Shown here: positions 10,208-45,525 of the stretch, in pieces | Position numbering within the stretch: position 1 is the first letter of the stretch | Layout: each line of letters begins with the position of its first letter | Source of the DNA: a virus | Virus record (IMG/VR): IMGVR_UViG_3300037245_003639 | Length of the DNA: 64,000 nt | Direction: 5' to 3' (one strand) | Program-made: the position numbers and the translations under genes | The notes under the pieces: model-generated | Told to the model about the DNA's origin: nothing | What the model saw: only the letters and a program-made list of their open reading frames with translations | The model's database searches: none

Positions 10208-10251
10208 AAGTTAACTGATACTGCAAAAAAGAGGAGGAACCCTGCCAATGT

Positions 10252-12126: not shown

Positions 12127-12127
12127 A

Positions 12128-12175
12128 AGAAAATCTCCTTCTGAGTATTATACTCACTCGGAAGGAGATTTTACT
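12128..12175 (-). promoter_or_regulatory. 12-bp inverted repeat (terminator-like hairpin for upstream gene) whose loop carries TATAAT + SD for the homing endonuclease
   Basis: AAAATCTCCTTC...GAAGGAGATTTT with T-run on minus strand; TATAAT in loop. Confidence 0.45.
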
Positions 12176-12224
12176 GGAAATATGTTTTCGGGAACTCGTT
12201 TTTGGTCTTACAAAAACCCCTTGT

Positions 12225-19140: not shown

Positions 19141-19227
19141 AGTCTCTCGCTTGTATAATTGCTCTGGATTATACCGGAGTTACCAGTGTCGTTCGAAATA
19201 AGTCAAAAACGAAAGTTCCATAATCTA

Positions 19228-20181: not shown

Positions 20182-21167
20182 AAGTTCCAGATCCTGATTT
20201 CCGATACACATCAGAACCCGTTTTTTATGCAGATGACCAACTGACGGTTTATCGCGACGGCCCGTTTGTTAAAGCTGTAGACAGAGATGGAGATGTAATA
20301 AAGACCATTCGCATTTCGTCAAACTTCAAGTATTTCGAGTCTGTAGAGTTGGACGACGCAGTGTTGTTAATGTTCTCTGGTGAGCAAATTATCATCTTCG
20401 ATAAACTGGGAATGAATGTTACCTCCTATAAGTTGGCTACCCATAAATTTGGAACATGTGTCACCCCGATATCGGTACTCAAAGATTCTTTGGGGTTGGT
20501 TTTCGGGACTAGGAGTAGAGGGCATATCCAGTTTTTGAACTATGACTACAAAACACAGCAACGGACCTCGCAAACATCATCTTGGAAGATGGCCAATATC
20601 TCAGATACTGTTCTTCATAACGACAAGCTATATGCCTTGTTGGATAATTCTTTTATGCTCTGTGCTGACGTTGTAACGGGCGAAACATTGTGGACAAGAT
20701 TTGAAACAGGCCATATTTCCCCAAAGATTATTGCCGATGGAGATGATATTTTTTATGCCTGTCAGGGCGTGCTAAAACGTCGTAATCCCGATCTTGAATC
20801 CATCAAAATACCTCTTGTTAAAGTTCATACAGTAGAAGCTAAATTTGGTGATGGTGTAGTTCTGACTGCCATGCAAGGGAAAAGTCTGTGTTGCTATGAC
20901 CTAACAACAAAAAAGATAAGGTGGGAAATCCGCAGCAATCTATCCATTCAAGAAACTTGTCCAATACGTATTCTGATTGACGGCAAAATTCATGATGCTT
21001 TGGCTGTCCGCACCAAAGACCACGTAACAATCATAGATTGCTCTAAAGGAAAAACTGTATACCACAACAAGTTTGATAACCTTGTCCGTATACGCAAGAC
21101 GGGAAGCCACCTGTTATTGCATAAGTATAACGGTTCTACAGGTGTTATTGCAGGTGAATTTATCTAA
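20163..21167 (+). CDS. PQQ-like beta-propeller repeat protein
   Basis: repeats of form ADVVTGETLW / YDLTTKKIRW. Confidence 0.55.
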   Translation: MLDYAIKVPDPDFRYTSEPVFYADDQLTVYRDGPFVKAVDRDGDVIKTIRISSNFKYFESVELDDAVLLMFSGEQIIIFDKLGMNVTSYKLATHKFGTCVTPISVLKDSLGLVFGTRSRGHIQFLNYDYKTQQRTSQTSSWKMANISDTVLHNDKLYALLDNSFMLCADVVTGETLWTRFETGHISPKIIADGDDIFYACQGVLKRRNPDLESIKIPLVKVHTVEAKFGDGVVLTAMQGKSLCCYDLTTKKIRWEIRSNLSIQETCPIRILIDGKIHDALAVRTKDHVTIIDCSKGKTVYHNKFDNLVRIRKTGSHLLLHKYNGSTGVIAGEFI

Positions 21168-24884: not shown

Positions 24885-26645
24885 ATGCTAGTTGTGAAAA
24901 GTTATCAACTGAACAAAACAGCGGCCCTACCTGCTGATATTTCTTTGCCTCTGGATGGTAAAGAGGAGCAAATCTTCTCTTTTATCAGACGGGCCATAGG
25001 TTCTATGCCCAAAGCTCCTGTGGCTCGGGTCGCCGGGGGCTGGGTGCGTGATAAATTACTGGGAAAACCGTCGAAAGACATTGATATTACAGTCGAAGGA
25101 ACCACAGGAGTTGAATTTGCAAATGCTCTCAGACAATATGCCATCGAAACCCAAGGAACAAAACAGAACATAGTTAGTCGGGTCAAAGACACAGAAGCGC
25201 GTCCCGAGCAAATCAAGAACTTGGCTGTTGCATTCCTGCGTATCTTTGATCAGGATATGGAAATTCTTGATCTGCGAGCAATCGAGTTCTATGAGAAGGG
25301 CAATCGAAATCCCACTGTGATTCGTCTCGAAGAGTTGAAAGCCATTGCACAACAACAGGGAATTCCGAGTTTCGTCAAAGACAAAGCTCCCCATTTGTTA
25401 TCTGCCATTAGCAAATTACCACATGGTAACAGCAACCATCCCAATGAAGTTCTTAAAACCCTTGACGCTCATCGACGAGATCTTACGATAAACTCGCTTT
25501 TCTACAACATCAACACAACGGAGATTGAGGATTTTACAGGTGAGGGATATGACGATTTGCTGACAATGACATTGCGGACTCCTATTGAACCCGTGAAAAC
25601 TTTTCAAGATGACCCTTTGCGAGTTCTTAGGATTCTGCGTTTCCACAGTCGTTACCCGAATTCCAAGATAGCCCCCGAAATTATTCAAGCAATGGCAGAT
25701 GAAGAAGTACAACATCAGATTACTCGTCGTCTTATCAAAGCAGATGAAACCGCAGGCATCGTCCCTGAAAGGACTGCTGAGGAATTACGCAAGCTAATGA
25801 TGGGAGCCCAGCCCGAAGCCGCTCTGCGGGTGATGCATGAAACGGGCCTGCTCCAGAAGATGTTTAATCTGCCAAAGGAATTTCACCCTCTGAATATGGA
25901 CCAAATGAGTTCATATCACAGTCTATCGGTTATTGAGCATATTCTAAATGTAGTAAAGAATGTCAATAACCTAGCCCAGGAATTCAATCTGTCTGGCCAG
26001 GAGAGGATGTTTCTAAATCTGGCCTCTCTATTCCACGACCTTGGGAAACTTGATCCTCGATCACATAAAGCAAAACCAGATGGAACAAGAGGCTATTCAG
26101 GAAGTGAAGCTGATGATTCACTGACCCATGAGCAATCCAGCTCAGATATGTGGGAAAGATTCGCGAGGGCTCTGAGGCTCAGTGATAAAGAACGGACAAC
26201 CATCCAAGATGTTGTTTCGGGGCACATGCGTCCACATGCTCACTTCGAGAATGAGATGCAATCTGCATCGGATAGAACATTACGACGTTATATGCGTAAA
26301 AACCCCCTATGGAAGTTGCAATATATCCTTGCCATGGGTGATGCTATGTCCAAAGCAGATGAGCCCGAGCCGCAGGCAGCAGACCCATATCGAGCAACCT
26401 ATGAGTACATGCAATCCCCAGGTTTTACCCCTCCACCGAAAAGTACTGAAAGACCTTTAGTAGATGGGCATCGAATCATCGAATTGGTTGGAGCCCATCC
26501 AAAGTCAGGTTACATTGAAGATGTCAAAGAGGAAATCAATCGCCTCCGCGATGAGAATCCTGCCTTAACTATTCAAGAAGCAGAACAGTTTATTCTCCAA
26601 ATGAAGGCCGATGGAGCATTCGCCCATCTTCCTCCTCTCCGTTAG
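24885..26645 (+). CDS. cca: CCA-adding tRNA nucleotidyltransferase with HD domain
   Basis: GGWVRDKLLG...DIDITVEG head motif, RRDLTINSLFYN, DPLRVLRILRF, HD motif LFHDLGK. Confidence 0.85.
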   Translation: MLVVKSYQLNKTAALPADISLPLDGKEEQIFSFIRRAIGSMPKAPVARVAGGWVRDKLLGKPSKDIDITVEGTTGVEFANALRQYAIETQGTKQNIVSRVKDTEARPEQIKNLAVAFLRIFDQDMEILDLRAIEFYEKGNRNPTVIRLEELKAIAQQQGIPSFVKDKAPHLLSAISKLPHGNSNHPNEVLKTLDAHRRDLTINSLFYNINTTEIEDFTGEGYDDLLTMTLRTPIEPVKTFQDDPLRVLRILRFHSRYPNSKIAPEIIQAMADEEVQHQITRRLIKADETAGIVPERTAEELRKLMMGAQPEAALRVMHETGLLQKMFNLPKEFHPLNMDQMSSYHSLSVIEHILNVVKNVNNLAQEFNLSGQERMFLNLASLFHDLGKLDPRSHKAKPDGTRGYSGSEADDSLTHEQSSSDMWERFARALRLSDKERTTIQDVVSGHMRPHAHFENEMQSASDRTLRRYMRKNPLWKLQYILAMGDAMSKADEPEPQAADPYRATYEYMQSPGFTPPPKSTERPLVDGHRIIELVGAHPKSGYIEDVKEEINRLRDENPALTIQEAEQFILQMKADGAFAHLPPLR

Positions 26646-26678
26646 TGCGTATAATATCGCAGACAGGAGAATGAACAT

Positions 26679-27668
26679 ATGTTGTTTCTCAAACGTTTGC
26701 GGTTACAGAATTTCTGCAACTTCGAAGATCATACTTTCGATTTCATGAAAGCAGACGGATCGCCAGAGCGATTCGTCTGCTTCTATGGTCCTAATGGAAT
26801 CGGAAAAAGCACATTATTAGAAGCTATTAGCCTGTTGACCAGCGATCAGACGGGACGCCCAATATCTTATGTACGCAATTCATTACGCAAGTATGTCCGT
26901 AACCCAGACTATAACCCTTCCTATCAGAAGCTCATAGGACATACATACAAAAACCAGATTATCACAGGCAATGTAGAGAATGAACTTCCAGAAATGCAGA
27001 TTGAGGGGACATATGAATACGAAGGCAAAGATTATACGATTCTCATGAATCAGGACGGCTGGGTTCGTAATGAGTTTCTTAGTGGAGCCTCTGAAAGACA
27101 TGAGAAGCAAGGGCCTTGGTTTCAGAACGAACTAAAAATGCGGCGAAGAATTTCTCACTCCATCAAAACTGACTCCGACCTTTCATTGAACTCATTCCAG
27201 ATTCATTTCGCCTACCAAAAAGAGTTCGAGGAAATCGTTTCGACCGTGATGCGTTACCCTATCCAATGTATCCGGAGACCAGAGCTAAGTGATACCAAAG
27301 AAGATTTCTGCACAGATGTGGTATTGGTGAAAAATAAGCACCGTATTCATTTCAAACGCATGAGTGCCGGTGAGCGTAAAATCTTGAAGTCATTCAGCGA
27401 GGTTTTGAACCTCATGCACACTTTAGCCCACCCAAGGCCAGGTGATCCAGCTATGCCTGGTTGGCCAAAGCTGCTATTAATGGATAATCTCGTAATGCAC
27501 GTTTATTACGACCGACATGCGACAATGGTCGATTGCTTGAAGCGCGTTTTTAACGAACAACAGATATTCGCCACCACCCACAGTGGAACACTCATCAACC
27601 AGCAACTGGCAAAAGAGAATGACTGGGAGAATGAGCTTTGGTTTGATCTGGAAAAGATCAACTTATAG
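26679..27668 (+). CDS. ABC/SMC-type ATPase (AAA_21-like)
   Basis: LRLQNFCNF start, Walker A GPNGIGKST, signature-like SAGERK, Walker B LLLMDN (Asn in place of Glu), H-loop TTHSG. Confidence 0.65.
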   Translation: MLFLKRLRLQNFCNFEDHTFDFMKADGSPERFVCFYGPNGIGKSTLLEAISLLTSDQTGRPISYVRNSLRKYVRNPDYNPSYQKLIGHTYKNQIITGNVENELPEMQIEGTYEYEGKDYTILMNQDGWVRNEFLSGASERHEKQGPWFQNELKMRRRISHSIKTDSDLSLNSFQIHFAYQKEFEEIVSTVMRYPIQCIRRPELSDTKEDFCTDVVLVKNKHRIHFKRMSAGERKILKSFSEVLNLMHTLAHPRPGDPAMPGWPKLLLMDNLVMHVYYDRHATMVDCLKRVFNEQQIFATTHSGTLINQQLAKENDWENELWFDLEKINL

Positions 27669-28655: not shown

Positions 28656-29090
28656 ATGCCAGCCTATGACTATGCTTGTAATAAGTGCGGATTAGTAAAT
28701 GAAATCCGCCACGGAATGACTGAAACCAAGAAATATAAATGCACGGAATGTGGGCATAAATACATGGAGAAGCAGATAAGCGCGACATTTCATGTGGCCC
28801 AGAGTTATCACGCTGGCCCAACCATGGCAGACCGCAAAGAAGGAGAACACACCAAAAGGGTTAAGGATTTAGACCGAGCTGTCAAAGCTCGTAAACGACA
28901 ATTCGGTTTTGACGCTGTCGGAACTCCAGTAGATACGCCAGACCCAAAACATATCGTGAAAAGGGGGCGCACTCTCGGCGGGCAGCAACTTGAAGTAGAC
29001 AAAACAGAATTTGTGAAGGCAGCAGCCAAAGACCCAGCTATGGTCAAAAAAGCTCAAGATGCACTAAAGAAGAGCAGAAGCAAAAAGTAA
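28656..29090 (+). CDS. FmdB-family zinc-ribbon protein with basic C-terminal tail
   Basis: MPAYDYACNKCG...CTECG pattern; GGAGAT SD; TATAAT at 28628-28633. Confidence 0.55.
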   Translation: MPAYDYACNKCGLVNEIRHGMTETKKYKCTECGHKYMEKQISATFHVAQSYHAGPTMADRKEGEHTKRVKDLDRAVKARKRQFGFDAVGTPVDTPDPKHIVKRGRTLGGQQLEVDKTEFVKAAAKDPAMVKKAQDALKKSRSKK

Positions 29091-29119
29091 ATTGGCTGAT
29101 CCCAATTGAGGACTTGTAA

Positions 29120-31057
29120 ATGAACAGGCCATATATTAATAAAAAAGTTACCGTTATTTTACCATGCAAAAACAGAGATCTGAGTTTGTATCAAGTTTTG
29201 CCTGCATGGTTTTGTCAGATAAAACATGCCCAAATTGTTATTGTGGATTACTCATCTCGTAGTTCTCTCTATAGTTTGGTGAAAGAGATTTGCAACCGAC
29301 ACAAAAAAACTCTGGCATACGATATGCCGCACTCCGATGCGGACTGTCTTATTCTCACGGTTAAAGATAAACAGTTCTTCAACATGAGCCATGCTATTAA
29401 TTACGCCATCACCAGAACCACATCAGACGTGATTTCGATTGCAGGATGTGAGAGCTTACCGACTCCTTACTATCTTGAGATAACGTGTAACCTGATCGAT
29501 CATTCCACTTTTACGAGATGCATTCGAGGGAGACTCACCTTTCCTCGACACCTGATAGAGCAAATTAATGGTTATCCCGAACTCATGGAATATTGGGGAG
29601 GGGAAGATGATATTGTAGCTTATCAGTTTACTCAACTTGGAGCCATGTGTATCGATCTTGATTATCTCTTGGCTCGTAATATGCAAACATCGGACTTCCA
29701 TAATCCTTTGCAAGGTTATGCCAATGAGGAACTAAATCTAAACAGGCAATACTCAGAACAAAATGATAACATTAAATACCGGAAAAACGATATAGCAAAA
29801 AAATTTGAAGGAGTAAAAAAGAACAGAAAAGCTTTCGCTCAATATTGCAAAGACTTCGGAGATGAAAAAACAAACAACTACGGGAAAGCCTATGGAGATG
29901 AGCTATCGGTACTGTTGACGCCTCAATCCCAGAAGATGGTGGTAGATGTACTCCCTGAAATCGCATGCCCACCTGTGGCCTCCCGATGCGTCGGCTCCAG
30001 ATGTGCAGTAATAATTCCTTGCATGAATAGATTAGAGAACCTTAAGGCAACTCTGCCTATGTGGTTATCTCAATTACACCAAAACAAACAAATCGTTATC
30101 ATTGATTATAACTCAAAAGTTCCAATTCTGCCACATGTCAAAGATATCTGTGAGGGATTCAAAATGTCTCTCGTTTATAACGAGTACGATGTTGACGCTG
30201 ATGTAGTAGTGTTCAGATTAGATGGCCAGGAACACTTTAATATATCACATGCGTATAACTATGTAGTCAAACGAATTAAAACAGAGGTTCTATCGTTCGC
30301 TTGTGCTGATACATGCCCAGTTGACTATTATCTTGATTTAGTGACCCATGCTGTCGATGAGAAATCAATAATTCAAACCTGGTGGGGGTTGCATACTATA
30401 ACCTATGAGAATTGGAAGAAACTAAATGGGCATCAAGAGTTTTTAGTGGGCTGGGGAGGAGAAGACAGCGACTTTATGGAAAGAGCCGTTTTGATGGGGC
30501 TTAGTTTTGTACATATACCCAAGAACTATTGCTTCCATATACCACAAACACCAGATGCTAAAGGGCAATACAGAGAAGTCAAGCAAATCGACCGTAGCAA
30601 TGCAATTAATATTGCTCGATTCAATCAATATCAGGCACTAAGGGGATATGTCGGAAATTACAAAGATAAAATCGGTGGAAACGAGCCTCTACCATATTTT
30701 GGAACAGAAGAAATACTCTATGTACTGCATGTTTTTGAATATCACGGTGAAGTAGATACGAGCAAATTGCCGCAACTCGCCAAACGAGGCAAAGAAGGTA
30801 TCTTCTACCTGGTTGTTGACGCTGTTGTTTCATTATCGCTTTTTTCAAAAGAAAAATGGCAGCAATGGCTAGATGCAGGTAAAGTAAAAGACCACATCAG
30901 CAAGATGATCCCTGATAACTCTGACATTACTGTTGACAAGTTTCTTTCAAATATTTACATTGAAATCGAAAATAAACATAAGAACCAAATACCTCAAGAT
31001 ACGGAAGAACTTCATGAAGCCAAAAGGCACAACCCTTTGCATAATAATGACGTATAA
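29120..31057 (+). CDS. tandem-duplicated GT-A fold glycosyltransferase (two GT2/GT7-like modules)
   Basis: two repeats of VIxPCxNR...IVIxDY...WGGED (WGGEDDIVAYQ and WGGEDSDFMERA). Confidence 0.65.
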   Translation: MNRPYINKKVTVILPCKNRDLSLYQVLPAWFCQIKHAQIVIVDYSSRSSLYSLVKEICNRHKKTLAYDMPHSDADCLILTVKDKQFFNMSHAINYAITRTTSDVISIAGCESLPTPYYLEITCNLIDHSTFTRCIRGRLTFPRHLIEQINGYPELMEYWGGEDDIVAYQFTQLGAMCIDLDYLLARNMQTSDFHNPLQGYANEELNLNRQYSEQNDNIKYRKNDIAKKFEGVKKNRKAFAQYCKDFGDEKTNNYGKAYGDELSVLLTPQSQKMVVDVLPEIACPPVASRCVGSRCAVIIPCMNRLENLKATLPMWLSQLHQNKQIVIIDYNSKVPILPHVKDICEGFKMSLVYNEYDVDADVVVFRLDGQEHFNISHAYNYVVKRIKTEVLSFACADTCPVDYYLDLVTHAVDEKSIIQTWWGLHTITYENWKKLNGHQEFLVGWGGEDSDFMERAVLMGLSFVHIPKNYCFHIPQTPDAKGQYREVKQIDRSNAINIARFNQYQALRGYVGNYKDKIGGNEPLPYFGTEEILYVLHVFEYHGEVDTSKLPQLAKRGKEGIFYLVVDAVVSLSLFSKEKWQQWLDAGKVKDHISKMIPDNSDITVDKFLSNIYIEIENKHKNQIPQDTEELHEAKRHNPLHNNDV

Positions 31058-31793
31058 TCGACAGCATTTACTACATCACGCAATAGACCAAGCTTGTAAA
31101 CAGAAAGAACCCGTCGATATAGTCATTTGGAATAACGGCCCCCGCCCGCGTATTGATGTTCCTCTGTTTAATGAGATACAAGTATTTCACGGAATCAACT
31201 CAGTCGGTCTACACCAGAGGTTTGTACCCGCTTTGTTGTATCCACATGAATACGTGATGTTTTTGGACGATGATCTGGTTATTGGTTCTCGATTCCTGGC
31301 GAATGCTCTGTCTATCATTGATGCTCACGAGAGTGCAATGGTCGTATCCATGGGATCAGTAATAGAAAATCCACTTAGTCAATATAACATTCGCACGAGA
31401 AAACCAATAGTCGGAAACACTATAAGAAACTCTACTCCTTGGCATTTAGATTTAGGGTCCATGGGGATATGCGTATGCCGTAGAAAATATATTCACTCAG
31501 TTTTCATGAACGGTTTTATACCTCCTCATCCAGCCGAGGAAATAGCCTTTTCAATGATGCACAAAATATACAACAAAGGAGAGATTATCTTAGCCCCTCA
31601 CTCAAAAGAGGACGAGATGGGCATAATCTCTTTTAAACAAGAACACTACAGTGGTCTAACATCCTCCCCTTCTTTTTCTAAAGAAAGAGGTAACATAATT
31701 CAGTCACTAGGGAATAAGCTCAAGTGGGAACCCACAGCGCAAAACTATCCAGAATGGAAATTTGGCGAAGCTTTCGAATATGCGAATAGATAG
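31015..31793 (+). CDS. glycosyltransferase family 2
   Basis: LCIIMTYNRQHLLHHAIDQ N-terminus typical of GT2. Confidence 0.6.
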
Positions 31794-32604
31794 AAAAAAC
31801 ATACTACTCATCATGAGAGTTAGAAACGAAGAGGATCAGCTCGAATGGTTCCTGGACCACCATAAATATTTCTATGATGTATTTGTAGCTATCGTAGACA
31901 GATGCACGGACAAATCCTATAAGATGCTCAGAGGCCATCCTCAATGCGCTGCAATCTTAGAAAAAGTCCAAGATTGCGGTTATTCTCACGCAAAAGATCA
32001 TAATGTTCTGCACAGTATCTGCCAGTATTACTCACACGAATGGATATGGAAATTAGATGCTGACGAACGAATATGTCAGTCTTTTCTGGATGAAATGGAA
32101 GACCTCCCAGACGGCATTGTCAAGATAGCAATGCGGTTTTTGTCGATATATCACAGCACCTCTGATCTCACCGCACCAGAATTTTATCAACATTTCATTG
32201 TCGGAGGACATGAATATGCGTCCATTCATGCTATTCCCCGGCTATTTAGAAAAATAGAGCGAGATGGGGTTCTCAATTGGAACGACGCTCCAACGTATAT
32301 CGCTAACGCGTTATGCTATCATTATCATATGCTAGACGGACGCAGGCGCATCCAGCGGTACAGGACGTATATAGAACATAACCCAGAAAGATTCACTCCC
32401 ACTAACATAGAGAGAGGCTATCGACATATCGTCGAGGTAGCAGGGGCCAAGCATTTGTCCCTCAAAAAAGAGGATGGAGAATTATGTCAAACCAGGGGGG
32501 AACTATATCAACATCTTAGGTCACTGGATTTGCCAGAAGAGCTTCGAGCAGATGTTGACAAAATGTGCAAGCTCCTCTTACAAGAGTGGGCAGAATTTAC
32601 ATGA
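31762..32604 (+). CDS. putative GT-A fold glycosyltransferase
   Basis: LIMRVRNEEDQLEWFLDHH N-terminal pattern; weak. Confidence 0.4.
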   Translation: MAKLSNMRIDRKNILLIMRVRNEEDQLEWFLDHHKYFYDVFVAIVDRCTDKSYKMLRGHPQCAAILEKVQDCGYSHAKDHNVLHSICQYYSHEWIWKLDADERICQSFLDEMEDLPDGIVKIAMRFLSIYHSTSDLTAPEFYQHFIVGGHEYASIHAIPRLFRKIERDGVLNWNDAPTYIANALCYHYHMLDGRRRIQRYRTYIEHNPERFTPTNIERGYRHIVEVAGAKHLSLKKEDGELCQTRGELYQHLRSLDLPEELRADVDKMCKLLLQEWAEFT

Positions 32605-33146
32605 TTCAACTTTATCTAACAGTGGATGATGGACCGAACAAACAAACCGCCGCAATAGCTGATTATCTATCTCAAAGGGGAATCAGAGCAGTTTTCTACC
32701 TTACTGGAGGAGCAATTGAGTGTTTTTCAAATGTCGCCAGAAAGGTTTCGGATTATGGTCATGAAATCGGAAATCATGGATATACCCATCAGTGTCTTTA
32801 TTCCAAATCCATTAAGGAAATAGAACAGGAACTGACAGATACACAAAATATTATCCAGTCTACTGCGGGCCAACTGCCAACAAAGTTTCGGCCTCCATAC
32901 CTTCGTTGGAACGAAGAACATAATCATCTTCTGCAAAAACTAGGCTTGCAGATCGAAGAGCTTTGCATGGGCATTGGCGATGCAACAAAGGAATATAGAA
33001 TCGACTATGAATTGGCTGAACGGAACCTATTTAAAAAAATAGAAGAAACAAAAGTGGTTTTGATTCATTCACGACAGCACACTTTAGAGGGATTACAGGA
33101 TCTACTGAGTTGGTTCGAATCAAAGGGTTATATCTTTGTCGATTAA
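32601..33146 (+). CDS. polysaccharide deacetylase (NodB domain)
   Basis: TVDDGP and GHEIGNHGYTH motifs; ATGA overlap with upstream stop. Confidence 0.75.
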   Translation: MIQLYLTVDDGPNKQTAAIADYLSQRGIRAVFYLTGGAIECFSNVARKVSDYGHEIGNHGYTHQCLYSKSIKEIEQELTDTQNIIQSTAGQLPTKFRPPYLRWNEEHNHLLQKLGLQIEELCMGIGDATKEYRIDYELAERNLFKKIEETKVVLIHSRQHTLEGLQDLLSWFESKGYIFVD

Positions 33147-33846
33147 AAAACACATCTTTTTGCCGGGAAATGCGAGATCAGGAACGACATGGGTAACAAA
33201 ATGGCTGGAGACCCATCCTAATATCGCATGCCGCCATAACTTTTATCTGCTTGATCACGCACTAGGTCTATTTGAACCGGTTGGGCCACGCATTCAACAC
33301 TGTATACAACCCCATGATGTGCGAGTGTTACTGGACTCCGTATTTGACCGATATTCTGAGGGAAAAGAGATTATGCTCGAAAGTTCATCAGGAGACATCT
33401 CTTATGGCGAACGGAGCCCGGCCCATCCCTACGGGCGACATATATCCTATTTCATCCACTCAGTTTACGAAGATGCTTACATTCTTATCATCTACAAAGA
33501 TGGAAAAAGCTGGGTTCACTCTCTCATGAACATTCCCTGGAAGACTGGCCATACAGTAGAACGATCAGTAGATTATTGGATCTCCAAAATGAGCATCATC
33601 CTGGAGCATACTCCTAAAAACACCTTACATATCAAATACGAAGATTTGTTATACAACGATGCCTATCAAGATATACTGGATTTCCTGAATATAGAACACT
33701 TACCACTGGTTGCCTGGGAGGAACCGCATGTTACCGTGTACTCAGAATATGACCCCGACAGATGGAAAAGCATGTCAAAAGAACAAATAAGTATGATGAA
33801 ACGTATGAATCCATGGTTAAAAAGAGCTGGCTATGAAACCATTTGA
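33136..33846 (+). CDS. sulfotransferase-family protein
   Basis: 5'-PSB-like LPGNARSGTTW; TTG start per ORF track. Confidence 0.55.
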   Translation: MSIKKHIFLPGNARSGTTWVTKWLETHPNIACRHNFYLLDHALGLFEPVGPRIQHCIQPHDVRVLLDSVFDRYSEGKEIMLESSSGDISYGERSPAHPYGRHISYFIHSVYEDAYILIIYKDGKSWVHSLMNIPWKTGHTVERSVDYWISKMSIILEHTPKNTLHIKYEDLLYNDAYQDILDFLNIEHLPLVAWEEPHVTVYSEYDPDRWKSMSKEQISMMKRMNPWLKRAGYETI

Positions 33847-33894
33847 CAATCATGTGTTATTCTGATAGGATTATCGCAGCATAAGGAGATGCTC

Positions 33895-34050
33895 ATGCTG
33901 TACCGGTTATTTCACAGGGATAATACGGAAGTCGTCCTTTGCAAGCAGCATTTGGATGAGGTAATTGCCGCTGAAGAAGAAACCATCGGGAAAGTGAACA
34001 CAGAACCAGACGGAGCGCCCTGCTGTATGTGCGAGGACCAGAAATCCTGA
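33895..34050 (+). CDS. small hypothetical protein (51 aa, Cys-rich C-terminus)
   Basis: AAGGAG SD 6 nt upstream of ATG; below ORF-track cutoff. Confidence 0.3.
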   Translation: MLYRLFHRDNTEVVLCKQHLDEVIAAEEETIGKVNTEPDGAPCCMCEDQKS

Positions 34051-34085
34051 CACGAAAAAACTTTCAGAAATAAGCAGGATTTCCC

Positions 34086-34113
34086 TTGCATCTTCCGAAA
34101 GCTAACGTATAAT
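34086..34113 (+). promoter_or_regulatory. sigma70-like promoter (TTGCAT-16-TATAAT)
   Basis: read directly. Confidence 0.55.
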
Positions 34114-34119
34114 ACCTGC

Positions 34120-34283
34120 GTGGTCGAATGATCGACCACCGAAACGGGACGGTAAGAATGAGATGTTTAGCGGATTCATTGTGGCTCTGTGATTATCTCC
34201 TAACGGGAGAGGCCCCCTAGTCCGCGAACGCATAAGCGATAAAGCGAGACTCGGTGGCCTAAACCAGGCGACCGAGTTTTTTG
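34120..34283 (+). ncRNA. candidate structured small RNA / leader (promoter to intrinsic terminator)
   Basis: hairpin GGTCGAATGATCGACC near 5' end; terminator stem GAGACTCGGTGGCC/GGCGACCGAGT + TTTTTT at 34246-34283. Confidence 0.4.
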
Positions 34284-34300
34284 TTTAACTGGACGAAACC

Positions 34301-34801
34301 ATGAGCAATATGACGGGAAGATTTCTCTCTCAATGGGAGATGGCAGAAGCAAAACGGCATGAAGCCCGAGCAAATTCGATACAGAAGCGAGAAGGAACGA
34401 ACTTCCCGCTCAGCGGAATTATCGCTTGGGGATGTGGCTGTTGCATCGGCCCAAGCATACGGTATGACCAGCCGATTCTGTCGGCATCCGAGGCTGATGG
34501 AGTCTTGAAGCAGCGGAAGCATGAAGTGTTTGGGCATCGAATAGGATGGCTCGACTCAGCGAGAATGCCGTCCCGAGTCCATCGCACTATCGACTGCGGA
34601 GAAACGACCGTTTGCGGGCATGTTCCCGCTGATAACGATTGGATTCTGGCAGAAGTGCCTCGAAAGAATCATGGATACAGCCGGTATTGTCGGACCTGTT
34701 TTCAACAAGGCGGTAAAGCATTGCCTTGGCTGAGAAAAGCGGATGTGGCAGAGCGGATGTGGCGGGAGCAGATATGGCGGAACGGCAGACGCGATAGCTG
34801 A
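34301..34801 (+). CDS. hypothetical Cys/Trp/Arg-rich protein in GC-rich segment
   Basis: 166-aa ORF; internal GCGGATGTGGC tandem repeat; coding status uncertain. Confidence 0.35.
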   Translation: MSNMTGRFLSQWEMAEAKRHEARANSIQKREGTNFPLSGIIAWGCGCCIGPSIRYDQPILSASEADGVLKQRKHEVFGHRIGWLDSARMPSRVHRTIDCGETTVCGHVPADNDWILAEVPRKNHGYSRYCRTCFQQGGKALPWLRKADVAERMWREQIWRNGRRDS

Positions 34802-34808
34802 ATAAAAA

Positions 34809-34883
34809 GGCTGGATAGCCCAATTTGGCAGAGGCATACGGTTCAGAGCCGTAAAGTTATGGGTTCGACTCCCATTCCAGCCA
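34809..34883 (+). tRNA. tRNA, class I (5-nt variable loop), anticodon CAG (decodes Leu CUG)
   Basis: acceptor GGCTGGA/TCCAGCC, anticodon arm TACGG-TTCAGAG-CCGTA, T-arm ATGGG-TTCGACT-CCCAT, A73. Confidence 0.55.
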
Positions 34884-34945
34884 TTGCTAGGCTGCTCAGG
34901 GTGGAGCAGCGAGAGACTTGTTTCAAACTCTCCACCCACAGCTTT

Positions 34946-35018
34946 GCCAAGGTGGCCCAACGGCAGAGGCGTCCGTCTCAAAAGCGGAATGTTGTGGGTT
35001 CGACTCCCACTCTTGGCA
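34946..35018 (+). tRNA. tRNA, class I, anticodon CAA (decodes Leu UUG)
   Basis: acceptor GCCAAGG/TCTTGGC, anticodon arm TCCGT-CTCAAAA-GCGGA, T-arm GTGGG-TTCGACT-CCCAC, A73. Confidence 0.55.
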
Positions 35019-35030
35019 TTGAAAATTAAA

Positions 35031-35104
35031 GCCCAGGTAGCCCAATTGGCAGCGGCTCGTGGTTTAGGTCCACGGAGTTGGGGGTTCGAATCCCTCCCTG
35101 GGTA
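35031..35104 (+). tRNA. tRNA, class I, anticodon UAG (decodes Leu CUA)
   Basis: acceptor GCCCAGG/CCTGGGT, anticodon arm CGTGG-TTTAGGT-CCACG, T-loop TTCGAAT, A73. Confidence 0.55.
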
Positions 35105-35233
35105 TTTAGTCATATTGGACAGGAGCGCAACTACTGTCCATGATTGAGCATAAGTGGCATTGCGTAGGTGCTTATGCAAATGACTAGACCGAGGGTGCAT
35201 TGCACTAATCACTCTAGAGGCTCCTCGGCCGAA

Positions 35234-35307
35234 GCGGCGGTAGCCCAATGGCAGCAGGCACAGCACTTAAAATGCTGACAGTGCGGGTTCGAATCCCGCC
35301 CGCCGTA
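35234..35307 (+). tRNA. tRNA, class I, anticodon UAA (decodes Leu UUA)
   Basis: acceptor GCGGCGG/CCGCCGT, anticodon arm CAGCA-CTTAAAA-TGCTG, T-arm GCGGG-TTCGAAT-CCCGC, A73. Confidence 0.55.
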
Positions 35308-35593
35308 TTGGAGAAAATCATGACTCACTAGAACCGGAAAAACCGAAGATCAGTTTTCATGCAGATTGCGTGTTCCATTGTGGTAAAGATGATATACACC
35401 ATTACTGGCAGGAACCCGGAGCACCATTGGGTGAAAAACAAACTTGGCGAGTAGTCTGTGAGCATGGAACAGTTAGAGGCGCCTTTGAAAACGAACTCGT
35501 GGCAGAAATATTTGCCGCATCGATGAATTGGGCATATACCCACGGAGTTTGGAATCGCCCCTAACAACACTGTTCTCTGATAAATGAATAAAC

Positions 35594-35676
35594 GTGGACG
35601 TGGTGAAATGGCAGACACGCCAGCTTGAGGGGCTGGTCCGGGCAACCGGGTGGAGGTTCGACTCCTCTCGTCCGCA
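35594..35676 (+). tRNA. tRNA-Leu (GAG), canonical class II with long variable arm
   Basis: anticodon arm CCAGC-TTGAGGG-GCTGG, variable arm CCGG-GCAA-CCGG, T-arm GGAGG-TTCGACT-CCTCT, A73. Confidence 0.7.
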
Positions 35677-35687
35677 TTGTGACCCCT

Positions 35688-35706
35688 CCTGAGATAGTAT
35701 CTCAGG
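35688..35706 (+). other. perfect 9-bp hairpin (CCTGAGATA-G-TATCTCAGG) after tRNA-Leu; likely processing or termination signal
   Basis: seen directly. Confidence 0.4.
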
Positions 35707-35753
35707 ATCGACGCTTGACAGCGTTTCGGGTGTGTGGTAACATACACCCACTT

Positions 35754-35835
35754 GGGTGAGTTGAGCAATTGGCTGCTCAGCGGGCTGTAAACCCGCCGTC
35801 GTGAGGCATTGTGGGTTCGAATCCCTCCTCACCCA
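35754..35835 (+). tRNA. tRNA-Tyr (GUA), class II
   Basis: acceptor GGGTGAG/CTCACCC, anticodon arm GCGGG-CTGTAAA-CCCGC, long variable region, T-loop TTCGAAT; preceded by hairpin GGGTGTGT-GGTAAC-ATACACCC. Confidence 0.65.
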
Positions 35836-35879
35836 TTCCAGGTATAATCCACATGGAGTAAACCATGCTGGAGTAACCA

Positions 35880-36644
35880 ATGGCTAAGTTTCCAGATTTC
35901 GTTGTAGTCGGACAAACGAAAACCTGTACCACTTCCTTATGGTACAACCTCGATAATCATCCCGACATCACTATGTGTTCTCAGGAGAATGATTCTGAAA
36001 TCCTTACGGGAACAGAGATTACGTTTTGGGGAAGCCGTAATTTTGGCAAAGGGATCGAATGGTATAAGTCATTGTTTCAAGGAAAGGTCGCAGGAGAGAA
36101 AAGCCCAGGTTATATAAACAGGGCACAATGTTTCAAACAAATGTCTCGACATATGCCTGACGTAAAGTTGGTTCTTTGCATCCGCAATCCTGTGGATAGA
36201 GCATATTCTCAGTTTCAGATGAGACAACGCAGGAACCCTGTTACAAAAGCTCCTAGCTATCAAGAATTAGAACAGTCGTCAGAGAAAGGTCGATACTATA
36301 CGCTAATCACAAATAACGTCTTGCCTTACTTCCCTAGGGGGCAGTTGCACCTATGCGTTGCCGAGTGGATGCGTCATGACCCGAATGCTGAAATACAGAA
36401 GGTTTACGATTTTTTGGGCATCGGACACCATTCTCTTCCAAATGTAAGATTGGAATCTTCAATCGCTCATGGCAAAGGGAAACCCAAGGTAGAAGTAAAA
36501 CGGTCTGACGATTATAAAGAGTGGCATAATGAATATCCAAAGCTTCCGGCCCGCATGAGAGCGAAGTTACTGAAACTCTTTGAGAAGGACAATAACAGAT
36601 TGTTCAGTTTTCTAGGTTATGAGATTCCAGAATGGAGCAAATAA
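35880..36644 (+). CDS. sulfotransferase (PAPS-dependent, Sulfotransfer_1/3-like)
   Basis: 5'-PSB-like VVVGQTKTCTTSLW and 3'-PB-like CIRNPVDRAYSQF; TATAAT and GGAG upstream. Confidence 0.7.
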   Translation: MAKFPDFVVVGQTKTCTTSLWYNLDNHPDITMCSQENDSEILTGTEITFWGSRNFGKGIEWYKSLFQGKVAGEKSPGYINRAQCFKQMSRHMPDVKLVLCIRNPVDRAYSQFQMRQRRNPVTKAPSYQELEQSSEKGRYYTLITNNVLPYFPRGQLHLCVAEWMRHDPNAEIQKVYDFLGIGHHSLPNVRLESSIAHGKGKPKVEVKRSDDYKEWHNEYPKLPARMRAKLLKLFEKDNNRLFSFLGYEIPEWSK

Positions 36645-36699
36645 AGTGCGTAAAAGCAAGTTTCGGGTGTGTGGTAACATACACCCATCTGGGTGAGTT

Positions 36700-36780
36700 G
36701 GGCAGGTGGTGTGCCCAGTAGGCTGTAAACCTACCGTTTCGGCATTGGTGGTTCGATTCCACTCTCACCCATTCCTAGTG
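36700..36780 (+). tRNA. tRNA-Tyr (GUA), second diverged copy
   Basis: acceptor GGGTGAG/CTCACCC, anticodon arm GTAGG-CTGTAAA-CCTAC, T-arm GGTGG-TTCGATT-CCACT; same upstream hairpin motif. Confidence 0.65.
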
Positions 36781-36850
36781 TGATTTAACGTAAGTGGATC
36801 ACCTTGGGTGTCCAGCGAATAGTCGCTAAGACATTTATTAGGAAAACAGA

Positions 36851-37535: not shown

Positions 37536-37620
37536 TTTATGTGGGTTCGAGTCCCATCATTGCAGAGATTCTGCGATGTAGCCTAACTGGCAAAGGCAAC
37601 TGTCTGCAAAACAGTGAAGT
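37536..37620 (+). tRNA. split/circularly permuted tRNA-like locus: 3' half (T-arm + acceptor 3' strand + G73) followed 6 nt later by 5' half (acceptor 5' strand, D-arm, anticodon arm with GCA)
   Basis: 3' half TTATGTGGGTTCGAGTCCCATCATTGCAG almost identical to 3' half of tRNA at 34809; 5' half TGCGATG-TA-GCCTAACTGGCAAAGGC-A-ACTGT-CTGCAAA-ACAGT; acceptor halves complementary (7/7 with G-U). Confidence 0.4.
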
Positions 37621-37660
37621 GAGAAAACAGCAATGCAAACTTTCGCATCCTTCTCTTTTT

Positions 37661-37731
37661 GAGCGCGTACCCAAGTGGCTAGGGAGCGGATTGCAAACCC
37701 GCCTACGTCGGTTCGACTCCGACCGTGCTCT
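37661..37731 (+). tRNA. tRNA-Cys (GCA)
   Basis: acceptor GAGCGCG/CGTGCTC, anticodon loop TTGCAAA, T-arm GTCGG-TTCGACT-CCGAC, U73 discriminator typical of Cys. Confidence 0.65.
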
Positions 37732-37735
37732 TGTT

Positions 37736-37809
37736 GGGGCCGTGGTGCAATTGGTTAGCACATCTGCCTGTCACGCAGAAGGTTGCCGGTTCGAGTCCGG
37801 TCGGTCTCG
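37736..37809 (+). tRNA. tRNA-Asp (GUC)
   Basis: acceptor GGGGCCG/CGGTCTC, anticodon arm TCTGC-CTGTCAC-GCAGA, T-arm GCCGG-TTCGAGT-CCGGT, G73. Confidence 0.7.
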
Positions 37810-37812
37810 TTT

Positions 37813-37887
37813 GGGCTATTGGAAGAGTCTGGAGTCTTCGCCTGCTTGTCACGCAGGAGATCACGAGTTCAAATCTCGTATAGCCCG
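37813..37887 (+). tRNA. tRNA-Asp (GUC), second diverged copy
   Basis: acceptor GGGCTAT/ATAGCCC, D-stem GAAG/CTTC, anticodon arm CCTGC-TTGTCAC-GCAGG, T-arm ACGAG-TTCAAAT-CTCGT, G73. Confidence 0.65.
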
Positions 37888-37890
37888 TTT

Positions 37891-37984
37891 GCCACAGTAG
37901 TTTAAGGACTAAGGCAAAACGTCGAGCCCGTCTTCTTAATAGAGCGGGTGCTCGATCATGCGAGTTCGAGTCTCGTCTGTGGCT
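37891..37984 (+). tRNA. 94-nt tRNA-like element with canonical acceptor and T-arm but atypical body (long bulged hairpin with 14-nt loop); identity unassigned
   Basis: acceptor GCCACAG/CTGTGGC, T-arm GCGAG-TTCGAGT-CTCGT; internal hairpin TCGAGCCCG-(TCTTCTTAATAGAG)-CGGGTGCTCGA. Confidence 0.35.
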
Positions 37985-43622: not shown

Positions 43623-44756
43623 ATGCCTGAGAGTGACTTTTTTGTTGATGGAATCTGGGTTCGCGATACGCAAATGTATCAGAAGTGCAAATGGAACAAA
43701 GACATCATTGATGACCGAGGGGTCATCATCGGTGTCGATGATAATCAAGCCTGGATGCTCAAGTGGTGGTGGGACAAATATCGAGAACATAACTCTCTTC
43801 CCGTCCTATTTGCTGATTTCGGCCTGACGAAGAAACATAGAAACTGGTGCGAGGAAAGAGGTTATCTTTCGCCTCTGATCACTCTCGAAGGCCATCCTTG
43901 GTTTAGAAAACCCTTTGGTTGCTTAGCTACTTGTTTTCAGCAAACCATATGGCTTGATACTGATGTAGAAGTGCGCCGCAATGTTGAGCCACTGTTTGAA
44001 TATGCCGCCGACAACAGTATAGGAATTACATTCGACCGAGGCTCACCTAAACAATGGGCTGAAGCCTTACCAACTGATTGTCGGCTCTTTAATAGCGGAG
44101 TCATCGCATACAACCACGGTGATATTGTTTTCAACAAATGGGCATTGATGGTTATGATCATGTGTCCATTTGAACCTATAGAAAAGAAACTAAAAATTCC
44201 CACCGGTGATCAGGAAGTATTGGCACTATCTATTCGGCAATATGGTCAAGGTCGAGTCAAAGAAATGCCAAAAGAAGAAGTCAGACTTCGCAGAGAACCT
44301 GACCGAATCCTATATGGAGACTGTTTAGTCAAGCATTGGACAGGGCCACATGGTAAAGATGAAATCAAAAAACGCCTTCCATCTTTGACCATAAACCAAC
44401 GACAACATATCCTGGCCAAGATTCCTCCCAAAGGGAAGTTTCTACAATGGAACTGCAACAACGATACTATCTGGTTTGCGGAGCATTTAGACCCAGACCA
44501 AAAGATGCTGGTTATACATCGAGGAGAGAACGAATTCGAGAAGGCTGTGACGGAAATCGGGCTTTCGGATCGAGTTAAATTTCTTCTTGAAGATGAATTT
44601 ATTGCCGAACTATCCATTGATCTGTTTAATGTTCATCTGGTGGACACGGGGAACCTACGCGTTTGTTTATCTAAGGCTCCCAAAAAATCATGGCTTTTCA
44701 CCAAGACACCCAAGGGTCTAAACGGAGTGAGAATAGGTTATGGCAATATGGTATGA
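43623..44756 (+). CDS. GT8-like retaining glycosyltransferase
   Basis: IWLDTDVEV (DxD), FNSGVIAYNHGD, KHWTGPHGKD (HxxGxxKPW-like). Confidence 0.6.
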   Translation: MPESDFFVDGIWVRDTQMYQKCKWNKDIIDDRGVIIGVDDNQAWMLKWWWDKYREHNSLPVLFADFGLTKKHRNWCEERGYLSPLITLEGHPWFRKPFGCLATCFQQTIWLDTDVEVRRNVEPLFEYAADNSIGITFDRGSPKQWAEALPTDCRLFNSGVIAYNHGDIVFNKWALMVMIMCPFEPIEKKLKIPTGDQEVLALSIRQYGQGRVKEMPKEEVRLRREPDRILYGDCLVKHWTGPHGKDEIKKRLPSLTINQRQHILAKIPPKGKFLQWNCNNDTIWFAEHLDPDQKMLVIHRGENEFEKAVTEIGLSDRVKFLLEDEFIAELSIDLFNVHLVDTGNLRVCLSKAPKKSWLFTKTPKGLNGVRIGYGNMV

Positions 44757-45525
44757 AACTGGGAATGGTATGGCCAGATCAAAAATGGCCAAGTGTAATA
44801 TAGGTATCGATGTCTATCTATGTTGCCCCGGCCCGTCTTTGGCTGATGTAAATGTTAGTGATTTACAAATTCCCAACGTGATGACAGTAGCAATTAACAC
44901 TGCATATCCTCACATTCGTCCCGACTTATGGATGGGCATGGATGAACCAGAATGTTACGACAAAACAGTTTGGTGGCAACCCTTTATGAAGATATGCCGA
45001 GGAGGTTACCAGAACAGAAAATGTGATGACCGATTGATATCTAGTTTTCCTAATGTATTCTTTGCAGATTGTGCTGAACCCAAAAGCCGAGCGGAGTTAT
45101 TCAATCTAAGAGCGCATGACGTGCGTTTCGTATGGCATAAGAACACTATGGCAATCTGTCTCCATATTCTGGTTTGGATGGGAGCAAAGAAAATCCACTT
45201 GCTTGGGTGTGACATGGGAGGAGAGAAAGACTATTACGATGATCGGGTTCTTGATGATGAACAGAAAAAATACAACCGTCGTCTTTATGGACACTTATGT
45301 CACTATTTGAAATGGTTTTCTGAAGAAGGAGCCAACCATGGAATCGAGTTGATTTCATGTACCTCTGATTCTCCCATTAACGAGTACCTGGTACACTATG
45401 ATTTGAAAGATGCTTTGGCTATCTCTTTGTCTTCGGTTCCTATCCCGGAGAAAGTAAAACACGTTTTGGAGGTTAGGAAACAGAAAAACAAGGAGAATGA
45501 GAAGAATGAAAATAGAAAGAAGTGA
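44740..45525 (+). CDS. DUF115/MptE-like domain protein (possible glycan-modification enzyme)
   Basis: CCPGPSL and NTAYP motifs; weak. Confidence 0.35.
   Translation: MAIWYETGNGMARSKMAKCNIGIDVYLCCPGPSLADVNVSDLQIPNVMTVAINTAYPHIRPDLWMGMDEPECYDKTVWWQPFMKICRGGYQNRKCDDRLISSFPNVFFADCAEPKSRAELFNLRAHDVRFVWHKNTMAICLHILVWMGAKKIHLLGCDMGGEKDYYDDRVLDDEQKKYNRRLYGHLCHYLKWFSEEGANHGIELISCTSDSPINEYLVHYDLKDALAISLSSVPIPEKVKHVLEVRKQKNKENEKNENRKK

Follow-up and report, generated by a model that had tools for sequence, protein, structure and literature searches.

The 64,000-nt stretch of DNA analysed here (IMG/VR virus record IMGVR_UViG_3300037245_003639; hereafter the window) belongs to a very large tailed-phage-like virus of a bacterium. 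At 28656-33846 on its plus strand lies a block of six co-directional genes, separated by short gaps or joined by stop/start overlaps, for a Zn-ribbon protein and five enzymes designated G1 to G5. The block encodes four GT-A glycosyltransferase (GT) domains across three proteins, together with a CE4 de-N-acetylase and a sulfotransferase of the 3'-phosphoadenosine-5'-phosphosulfate (PAPS) type; the gene of a second sulfotransferase, G6, stands downstream among tRNA genes. We regard this set as a real, conserved and previously undescribed form of virus-encoded glycan modification rather than a new category. Virus-encoded glycosylation is established in chloroviruses, Megavirinae and mycobacteriophages; that the enzymes of a virus also sulfate its glycans or virion proteins is, to our knowledge, no more than predicted so far, giant viruses included, and has never been demonstrated for a phage. 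No paper describing a phage glycosylation-sulfation operon was found in the literature. Our preferred reading, to which we give a probability of roughly 0.45, is that the enzymes glycosylate and sulfate a phage-made, probably virion, protein in the cytoplasm.

The gene block, its enzymes and its relatives

The first gene of the block encodes a 144-aa Zn_ribbon_8 (FmdB-like) protein (28656-29090; Pfam PF09723, 1.2e-8, above cut-off), and a GGAG motif and a TATAAT sequence lie upstream of it. It is followed by G1 (29120-31057), a 645-aa tandem double GT-A enzyme recognised by Glyco_transf_7C, Glycos_transf_2 and an AlphaFold (AF2) model; by G2 (31014-31793), a 259-aa GT2-family GT-A protein with a DDD motif (PF00535, 2.2e-8); and by G3 (31780-32604, with an alternative start at 31813), a Glyco_tranf_2_4 GT-A-like protein of ~274 aa with a DAD motif (PF13704, 1.2e-9). 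G4 (32601-33146), whose start overlaps the G3 stop codon (ATGA), is a 181-aa CE4/NodB-type de-N-acetylase (PF01522, 3.2e-29), and G5 (33136-33846, TTG start) is a 236-aa Sulfotransfer_3 protein (PF13469, 3.8e-8, 34.3 bits against a gathering cut-off of 27). G6 (35880-36644, plus strand) encodes a 254-aa Sulfotransfer_1 protein, in which the PF00685 match (1.7e-14) spans residues 5-220. Gene calling done independently on a 19-kb Logan contig of identical sequence (L001) placed G2, G4, G5 and G6 at the same coordinates. The original prediction, made from the letters and open reading frames (ORFs) of the window, had read this plus-strand run as a double GT, a GT2, a GT-A-like protein, a NodB deacetylase and a sulfotransferase, and each of them proved to lie above its Pfam threshold. 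The sulfotransferase and deacetylase assignments, on which that prediction had staked its validity, were matched by their profiles (PF00685, Sulfotransfer_3 and PF01522). Equivalog-level names were given by NCBIfam to 0 of the 10 proteins, and a scan of 27.5-38.5 kb for promoters and terminators gave no excess over the random expectation (19 vs 18.9 and 14 vs 9.5 ± 2.8, respectively).

Neither signal peptides nor membrane segments occur in the proteins of the block or in G6, all of which are soluble, and no hydrophobic segments were found in G1-G6, in the GT8-like protein or in the GT4 encoded elsewhere in the window. Among the window proteins scanned and the annotated flanks of the relatives, there was no initiating transferase, flippase, polymerase or exporter, and no gene for nucleotide-sugar or PAPS synthesis (sulfate adenylyltransferase (SAT)/adenosine-5'-phosphosulfate (APS) kinase).

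The module and its neighbours are kept in at least five other loci, so that their grouping is more than chance. As found by tblastn, the Zn-ribbon gene stands directly upstream of the double GT in L109, L110, L111 and L113/L115, and nearby in L112/L114. L109 (26 kb) holds a CCA-adding enzyme, an AAA ATPase, the Zn-ribbon protein, an extra sulfotransferase, the double GT (63% identity), a GT2, a G3-like protein, a MurB_C-like protein, a G5-like sulfotransferase, a CE4 protein, seven tRNAs, RNase H and DnaJ; L110 (6.4 kb) holds the Zn-ribbon protein, double GT, GT2, G3-like and G5-like proteins and a tRNA. In L111 (327 kb), PQQ propellers, a CCA-adding enzyme, an AAA ATPase and the Zn-ribbon protein accompany the double GT, a 247-aa protein, a sulfotransferase and a MurB_C-like protein. 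L112/L114 (176 kb) combines a GT2, a G5-like sulfotransferase and the double GT, with GT4s nearby and, on the opposite strand, a 404-aa sulfotransferase and the Zn-ribbon protein. L113/L115 (IMG/VR, 90 and 138 kb) has the AAA ATPase, Zn-ribbon protein, double GT and GT2, and no sulfotransferase. The conserved core is thus the Zn-ribbon protein, the double GT and the GT2. G5-like sulfotransferases, either orthologues or paralogues, are frequent partners of the double GT and adjoin it in L109, L110, L111 and L112/L114, and among the module loci the CE4 gene is present only in the window and L109. In L109 and L110 the orthologues of G2 are 65-68% identical and in the equivalent position, and those of G3 are 70% identical.

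Two of these loci carry a protein that is absent from the window, a 260-aa MurB_C-like protein beside the G5-like sulfotransferase (L109, 9228-10010; L111, 13283-14062). MurB_C is the C-terminal domain of UDP-N-acetylenolpyruvoylglucosamine reductase, which hints at a muramic-acid-like sugar in the glycan of L109 and L111.

G1 contains Glyco_transf_7C (4.9e-16) and Glycos_transf_2 (7.7e-9), each in two stretches, and the two halves of the protein are paralogous to each other (34% identity across 159 residues; E 2e-33). Structure prediction of this 645-aa protein, which had been proposed as a check of its double nature, gave an AF2 model with a predicted local distance difference test score (pLDDT) of 84.9 and a predicted template-modelling score (pTM) of 0.79. 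It contains two GT-A domains of beta4GalT/GT7-like type (~residues 10-187 and 295-473), a helical linker and a C-terminal alpha/beta domain (~534-640). A W-G-G-E-D stretch aligned to beta4GalT1 occurs in both domains, as YWGGEDD in the N-terminal and GWGGEDSD in the C-terminal one. Across 27 homologues both domains keep FN[MI]SHA and WG[GA]ED, with E448 invariant, and the DxD position is down to one conserved carboxylate (G-[CT]-[ED]-[ST] in the N-terminal domain; C-[AG]-D-[ST] in the C-terminal domain, D397 invariant). Because these three features are conserved, both GT domains look active. In a Foldseek search of the PDB, the top matches of the model were K4CP (3.3e-16), PmHS2 (4e-12), CHSY3-CHPF and LARGE1. 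With TM-scores of ~0.26 and 11-12% identity to K4CP/PmHS2-type polymerases, the resemblance is therefore architectural; the single-domain fold matches were beta4GalT1, SpsA and TarP. The best match among viral models (BFVD) was a glycosyltransferase of Moumouvirus australiensis (2.1e-18), and tblastn against all phage records gave just one weak partial match.

The CE4 motifs of G4 are intact (TVDDGP, HGYTH, RPPY and LIHS) and align to CE4 structures. Its PDB matches are a chitin deacetylase (8e-21), PdaC and PgdA, the GlcNAc/MurNAc deacetylases ranging from 8e-21 to 1e-15, and a weak match to HfsH (5.8e-5) was also seen. Against the NCBIfam models of PdaB, PdaA, PgdA and NodB, G4 scored under every equivalog cut-off; with 67.5 bits against TIGR04243 (cut-off 240) it is not NodB proper. 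Because it has no signal peptide, G4 is predicted to act in the cytoplasm.

When the G5 family profile, built from four sequences, was compared with the PDB, it matched only TPST1/2 and a TPST-like fragment (3e-9 to 1e-7). The 5'-phosphosulfate-binding (5'-PSB) motif of G5, PGNARSGTTW, aligned to the TPST GGxPRSGTT, and G5 shares GxxRSGTT and DG[RK]xxVHS with the TPSTs. Because its only solved relatives are TPSTs, G5 may sulfate a protein instead of a sugar. The AlphaFold model from the four-sequence alignment (pLDDT 44) was unusable for a fold search.

The profile of the G6 family, which consists of ~250-aa proteins, matched the N-sulfotransferase (NST) domain of NDST1 at 7.6e-32 over residues 2-250 and 3-OSTs at ~1e-25 (114 bits for the NST domain vs 92 bits for 3-OSTs). 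The 5'-PSB and 3'-phosphate-binding (3'-PB) motifs that the original prediction had pointed out in this second sulfotransferase are conserved in the family alignment of 23 sequences. In the 5'-PSB stretch K14-T-C-T17-T18, K14 is nearly invariant, T17 is invariant and a Cys stands where the family has Gly. R102 and S110 of the 3'-PB and the catalytic-type E46 are invariant, and E46 aligns in the E-E-I-Q-F-F stretch of NST. The E-I-x-F-W-N after this Glu is NST-like, as against the E-x-H-F-F-D of 3-OSTs, whose His and Asp are absent. Judged by this motif, N-sulfation by G6 is only hinted at.

G6 is flanked by a diverged direct duplication of tRNA-Tyr (35723-35848 and 36660-36784). The two copies are 83% identical, share a 30-nt identical upstream leader, are spaced 937 nt apart and bracket G6 exactly; this suggests that G6 is a later, lineage-specific insertion in the tRNA array, which may have arrived by insertion or recombination at a tRNA gene.

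Sulfotransferases had been called rare in viral genomes, and this claim holds for deposited phages. There was no PHROG family match for either G5 or G6, and tblastn against 50,697 phage records gave no match for G6; G5 had none among deposited phages at E <= 0.01. Rarity does not extend to viruses at large, since 24 IMG/VR loci have relatives of G6, PF13469 proteins occur in some phages and sulfotransferases are predicted in the glycosylation clusters of Megavirinae, on which a review has commented. Homologues of G6 are widespread in bacterial and archaeal (GTDB) genomes (>590 matches, 25-34% identity), closer relatives (37-45% identity) were seen in metagenomic and viral contigs only, and giant-virus bins contain relatives at 25-30%. 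One set of the closer relatives, on IMG/VR contigs of 142-277 kb, belongs to runs of three consecutive sulfotransferases; in L006-L008 such a run stands beside a PfkB sugar kinase (9312-12426 in L006). A 20-kb island in L003 (1-20753) contains NeuB, a CMP-sugar synthetase, GT29-like, GT9, Sulfotransfer_2 and G6-like genes. In L004 a PIG-L family de-N-acetylase follows immediately 3' of the G6-like gene (10001-12206). Because no deacetylase was found in the sulfotransferase neighbourhoods of L005 and L006, the deacetylase-sulfotransferase pairing is supported by the window, by L109 (where the partner is a G5-like protein) and by L004 (with PIG-L).

Proposed function and alternatives

In the preferred reading, host UDP-sugars and host PAPS would be used in the cytoplasm during infection, because no hydrophobic segments and no export, nucleotide-sugar or PAPS genes were seen. 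At least four GT-A domains would assemble, stepwise, a short hetero-oligosaccharide containing an N-acetyl-hexosamine; G4 would strip the acetyl group from this hexosamine, and G5 and G6 would add sulfate, G6 possibly on the freed amine. The acceptor would be a phage-made protein, probably a virion surface protein, and an anionic glycan coat on the particle would be the result. Such an acceptor is favoured because the machinery is soluble, because G5 and the GT8-like protein resemble protein-directed enzymes (the best GT8 structural matches include such enzymes), and because Megavirinae and mycobacteriophages offer precedents. If this is true, the coat would affect adsorption, aggregation, binding to mucus or exopolysaccharide (EPS), and immune recognition of the particles.

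Several observations weigh against this reading. G6 is absent from L109-L115, its only other trace being a 69%-identical fragment, and sulfotransferases are absent from L113/L115; sulfation thus appears accessory and not core. The module adjoins no virion structural gene in any relative, nor was one recognised among the genes of the window. The lipid-linked stages of bacterial polysaccharide synthesis also employ cytoplasmic GT-A enzymes that lack membrane segments, so that a product on the host surface is possible. The 3'-PB of G5 (YKDGKSWVHS) has Lys for the usual Arg, which its orthologues keep (YRDGKNWVHS) and which one L112 paralogue likewise replaces with Lys. The catalytic Glu of TPSTs (C-G-E-E after H-P-D-I) is not conserved in the G5 family, which has CRHN, CCHN, CYRD or LIRS; G5 is therefore filed as a TPST-like Sulfotransfer_3 protein and not as a TPST. 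Moreover, the activity, donor sugar and acceptor of the block enzymes are predicted, and the supply of PAPS by the host is assumed. The original prediction had proposed a set that could build or remodel a sulfated or deacetylated glycan on the virion or host surface. That the double GT and sulfotransferases stay linked in related phages supports such a functional glycan-plus-sulfate module, but in a reduced form: G6 lies outside the conserved module, G5 is maybe protein-directed and the outlying glycan-type genes are separate.

A serious alternative, which we judge less probable than the preferred reading but close to it, is remodelling of the host envelope. The enzymes would then modify a lipid-linked O-antigen, capsule, EPS or holdfast-like adhesin, and the host would export a de-N-acetylated, sulfated variant, which could block superinfection or keep progeny off debris. 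It has to be taken seriously since solubility is equally a trait of the usual polysaccharide GTs and of HfsH-type deacetylases; bacterial peripheral GT2/GT4 enzymes and cytoplasmic CE4 proteins such as HfsH work in this manner. The wide spread of G6 homologues in bacterial and archaeal genomes fits as well. So do the G6 relatives in large viral contigs: they lie within islands of at least 20 kb whose NeuB, CMP-sugar synthetase, GT29-like, GT9 and methyltransferase genes are characteristic of loci for surface polysaccharides. However, neither the window nor the annotated flanks of the relatives contain an initiating phosphoglycosyltransferase, flippase, polymerase or ABC exporter, and the solved relatives of G5 are protein-directed.

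That affinity of G5 leads to an alternative which overlaps the preferred reading in part and which we consider improbable: G5 would be a protein-tyrosine sulfotransferase acting on a phage or host protein independently of any glycan, and the sulfation of sugars would be left to G6 alone. The G5 family profile matches nothing but TPST1/2 and a TPST-like fragment, and the GxxRSGTT and DG[RK]xxVHS motifs are shared. Yet the position of the catalytic Glu is not conserved and the AF2 model is unusable; PF13469 is a broad family, in which a TPST-only result may mirror which structures have been solved. That G5-like genes are linked to the double GT in four lineages, tightly and with overlaps, argues furthermore for a shared substrate.

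It is more doubtful still that the window encodes a split NDST, in which G1 would polymerise an alternating disaccharide, G4 would de-N-acetylate its GlcNAc or GalNAc, G6 would N-sulfate the amine and G5 would sulfate the product further. That product, with the same slim chance, would be a heparan- or chondroitin-sulfate mimic shown by the phage or the infected cell. The top folds of G1 (K4CP, PmHS2, CHSY3-CHPF and LARGE1) are all bifunctional polymerases, but tandem GT-A proteins match tandem GT-A structures anyway, here with TM ~0.26 and 11-12% identity, and the G1 domains are paralogues of one type, unlike the differing domains of glycosaminoglycan polymerases. The G6 family matches the NST domain of NDST1 best and has the NST-like E-I-x-F-W-N, the NDST1 deacetylase shares the His-His-Asp metal mechanism, and a CE4 deacetylase together with NST gives N-sulfated heparosan in vitro; an independent pairing of G6-like and PIG-L genes occurs in L004. 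On the other hand, G4 and G6 are 2.7 kb apart, relatives that have G4 lack G6, and neither UDP-glucose dehydrogenase nor an exporter was found in the window. Were a split NDST nevertheless true, it would be the first viral, and among very few prokaryotic, routes to N-sulfated glycans. Its NST-like and CE4 enzymes, being soluble and prokaryote-compatible, would then be a source for heparin-like synthesis, in which active NDST expression in bacteria is a recognised bottleneck of the enzymatic route.

We know of no sulfation or de-N-acetylation of DNA glycans. Hypermodification of phage DNA by these GTs is very improbable: phage GTs that add multi-sugar glycans to DNA are known (from a study cited in PMC12619734), but the window proteins scanned included no hydroxymethylase and no other product of a base-modification gene, and the affinity of G5 is to protein-directed enzymes.

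Genome context and neighbouring genes

The proteins of G6, G1, the CCA-adding enzyme and a methylase match exactly a 403,172-bp JGI contig; this is the source contig, and its size counts towards the assignment to a phage of a bacterium. By profile scans the window encodes PhoH, NUDIX, a PurN-like formyltransferase, DFP, a D12 methylase, RNase H, DnaJ and NDK, as well as a LAGLIDADG endonuclease, an S8 subtilase, a trypsin-like protease, a CCA-adding enzyme and a Volactin-family actin. DnaJ, protease and PhoH queries led to 484-642-kb 'uncultured phage' records, and there are relatives in IMG/VR. Shine-Dalgarno-like motifs precede 30 of the 53 genes (background, 12%), and the tRNA-Tyr of the window is class II by length (ARAGORN), which is the bacterial type. 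Megablast of 24 kb of the window against the 50,697 phage records and tblastn of two large unknown ORFs against phage records returned no match; because these searches were empty save for the weak partial G1 match, the lineage appears to have no deposited relative. The viral assignment rests on context, IMG/VR relatives and genome style, its main caveat being that no major capsid, portal, terminase or tail gene was recognised in the window. Moraphages, for which Bacteroidota hosts are predicted, also encode DnaJ, PhoH and core GTs (PMC12619734). The strong Shine-Dalgarno usage seen here argues against such hosts. At four starts (17768, 24885, 38004 and 43623), the last base of GTATAAT stands 4-7 nt ahead of the ATG, which resembles transcription starts of the leaderless type.

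The actin homologue (1341-2456, minus strand) matches the Volactin family over its full length (Pfam PF25216, 9.2e-69); the family name derives from an archaeal cytoskeletal protein. The trypsin-like protease gene adjoins it, and the sole other phage-database relatives of this protease are in a 484-kb phage record and an Aeropyrum pernix virus. Two neighbouring PQQ/BamB-like beta-propeller proteins of 340 and 334 aa are encoded at 19159-21167 (plus strand); PQQ-type propellers also occur upstream of the glycan module in L111. At 24885-27668 (plus strand), a CCA-adding enzyme with an HD domain is followed by an AAA/SMC-like ATPase, and this pair stands directly upstream of the glycan module also in L109, L111 and L113/L115. 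Together with the tRNA array, the pair suggests a tRNA repair or maintenance unit.

Downstream of G5 there follow, in order, a 51-aa ORF, a structured non-coding stretch, six tRNA genes, G6, another tRNA-Tyr and a last group of four or five tRNAs. The interleaving of tRNA genes noted in the original prediction was therefore recovered: of the 11-12 tRNAs in total, G5 and G6 enclose six, another follows G6 closely and the remaining four or five are at 37.57-37.98 kb. The first group (34809-35836, plus strand; ARAGORN, Rfam 47-61 bits) consists of Leu (CAG, CAA, TAG, TAA), Leu(GAG) and Tyr(GTA). The downstream duplicate of tRNA-Tyr(GTA) is at 36690-36772, and the last group (37572-37984), also on the plus strand, comprises a weak tRNA, Cys, Asp, Asp and Leu(GAG). 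The composition of the array (six Leu, two Tyr, two Asp and Cys) is heavy in Leu, which could reflect replacement of host tRNAs cut by anticodon nucleases. Bacterial tRNA-Leu is normally class II; the four Leu-anticodon tRNAs of 74-75 nt at 34809-35307 (plus strand; Rfam 52-61 bits) are class I, with no long variable arm, and the first of them, read base by base, has the discriminator A73. A tRNA array is found 3' of the module in L109 and L110 as well. The proximity of tRNAs and module is conserved genome architecture, and nothing suggests a functional link.

The non-coding stretch after G5 (34060-34292, plus strand) has a promoter-like TATAAT at ~34108. The ~170 nt that follow have a minimum free energy of -65.5 kcal/mol (z = -3.3, 0 of 200 shuffles equally stable), and the stretch ends in a strong hairpin and then TTTTTTGTTT. 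There was no Rfam match, and a 91-nt piece is 71% identical in L110 (5756-5841), where it likewise lies between the sulfotransferase and the first tRNA. The stretch may be a candidate phage small RNA.

Further glycan-type genes had been listed at 43.6-46.5 kb and 14.2-17.7 kb. The first of a separate three-gene unit on the plus strand encodes a distant GT8-like (retaining GT-A) protein of 377 aa (43623-44756). It has no direct PF01501 match at E <= 0.1; the profile of its family of 619 members matches only GT8 structures (2.7e-5 to 1e-4; AgtA at 2.7e-5, glycogenin and LgtC), 4 of 35 relatives match PF01501, and D112 and D114 of the D-x-D are invariant. The second gene (44740-45525, 261 aa), labelled DUF115-like, encodes a protein with a weak resemblance to MptE/DUF115-type transferases: PF01973 gave 0.0033 and 17.7 bits vs a cut-off of 34.6 and the PDB gave no match, while PHROG 4603 'alpha-2,3-sialyltransferase' matched at 1e-5 over nearly the whole profile. 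The third (45497-46489, 330 aa) is, as had been stated, a BNR_2 sialidase-like beta-propeller (PF13088, 4.5e-10, 39.8 bits, above the cut-off of 31.4). On the minus strand, the GT4 (GT-B) of 496 aa (16253-17743) is secure (Glyco_trans_1_4 8.8e-15, Glycos_transf_1 3.1e-12) and has a 39%-identical orthologue near the double GT in L112/L114. The supposed GT9-like gene (14242-14925, minus strand) was dropped, with no match in Pfam (0.01), NCBIfam or, at E <= 5, any relevant PDB entry and with PF01075 unsupported. Distances of 11 kb and 7 kb separate the genes at 14-17 kb and at 43-46 kb, respectively, from the block; these genes form units of their own, with no evidence that they share a product with it.

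Comparison with known systems

The rhizobial NodC/NodB/NodH enzymes resemble the block in combining a GT2, a cytoplasmic NodB-type deacetylase and a PAPS sulfotransferase. The Nod-factor system, however, includes the NodA acyltransferase and a membrane-embedded NodC-type synthase, neither of which is in the block. As G4 is also below the NodB cut-off, this analogy was rejected.

K4CP and PmHS2 are like G1 in placing two GT-A domains in one soluble polypeptide, but the relative orientation of the domains differs (TM ~0.26), identity is low, and the domains of G1 are of a single beta4GalT-like type. With NDST1 the likeness lies in G6, a clear homologue of the NST domain with the PSB Lys, catalytic Glu and 3'-PB Arg/Ser, and in the metal-dependent de-N-acetylase G4 nearby. 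In NDST1 the domains are fused, the deacetylase is Agd3/CE18-like and the enzyme works in the Golgi, whereas the genes of the block are separate, and G4 is a CE4 enzyme predicted for the cytoplasm.

Mycobacteriophage GT2 enzymes O-glycosylate capsid and tail proteins (Freeman et al. 2023, cited in PMC12619734). The system is like our proposal in using soluble phage GT-A enzymes in the cytoplasm; it is unlike the block in having no sulfotransferase or deacetylase, in its small genomes and in showing no sequence relationship.

In Moumouvirus australiensis, the glycosylation cluster ma457-ma468 combines a predicted sulfotransferase with SAT/APS kinase and nucleotide-sugar synthesis (PMC10117803). 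Like the block, the fibril cluster of Megavirinae clade B has a multi-domain GT-A protein and a predicted sulfotransferase and is proposed to act on virion surface proteins. Unlike the block, it belongs to a eukaryote-infecting giant virus with its own nucleotide-sugar and PAPS synthesis and has no CE4; sulfation is predicted there too.

Finally, OM43 phages and Synechococcus phage S-SRM01 encode PF13469 sulfotransferases whose role was called unclear by the authors (PMC10580990). Those sulfotransferases stand alone, whereas G5 is embedded in a conserved GT operon, a compact and all-soluble arrangement in a huge-phage lineage that ties sulfotransferases to specific GTs and a deacetylase and that, with six small genes, is testable.

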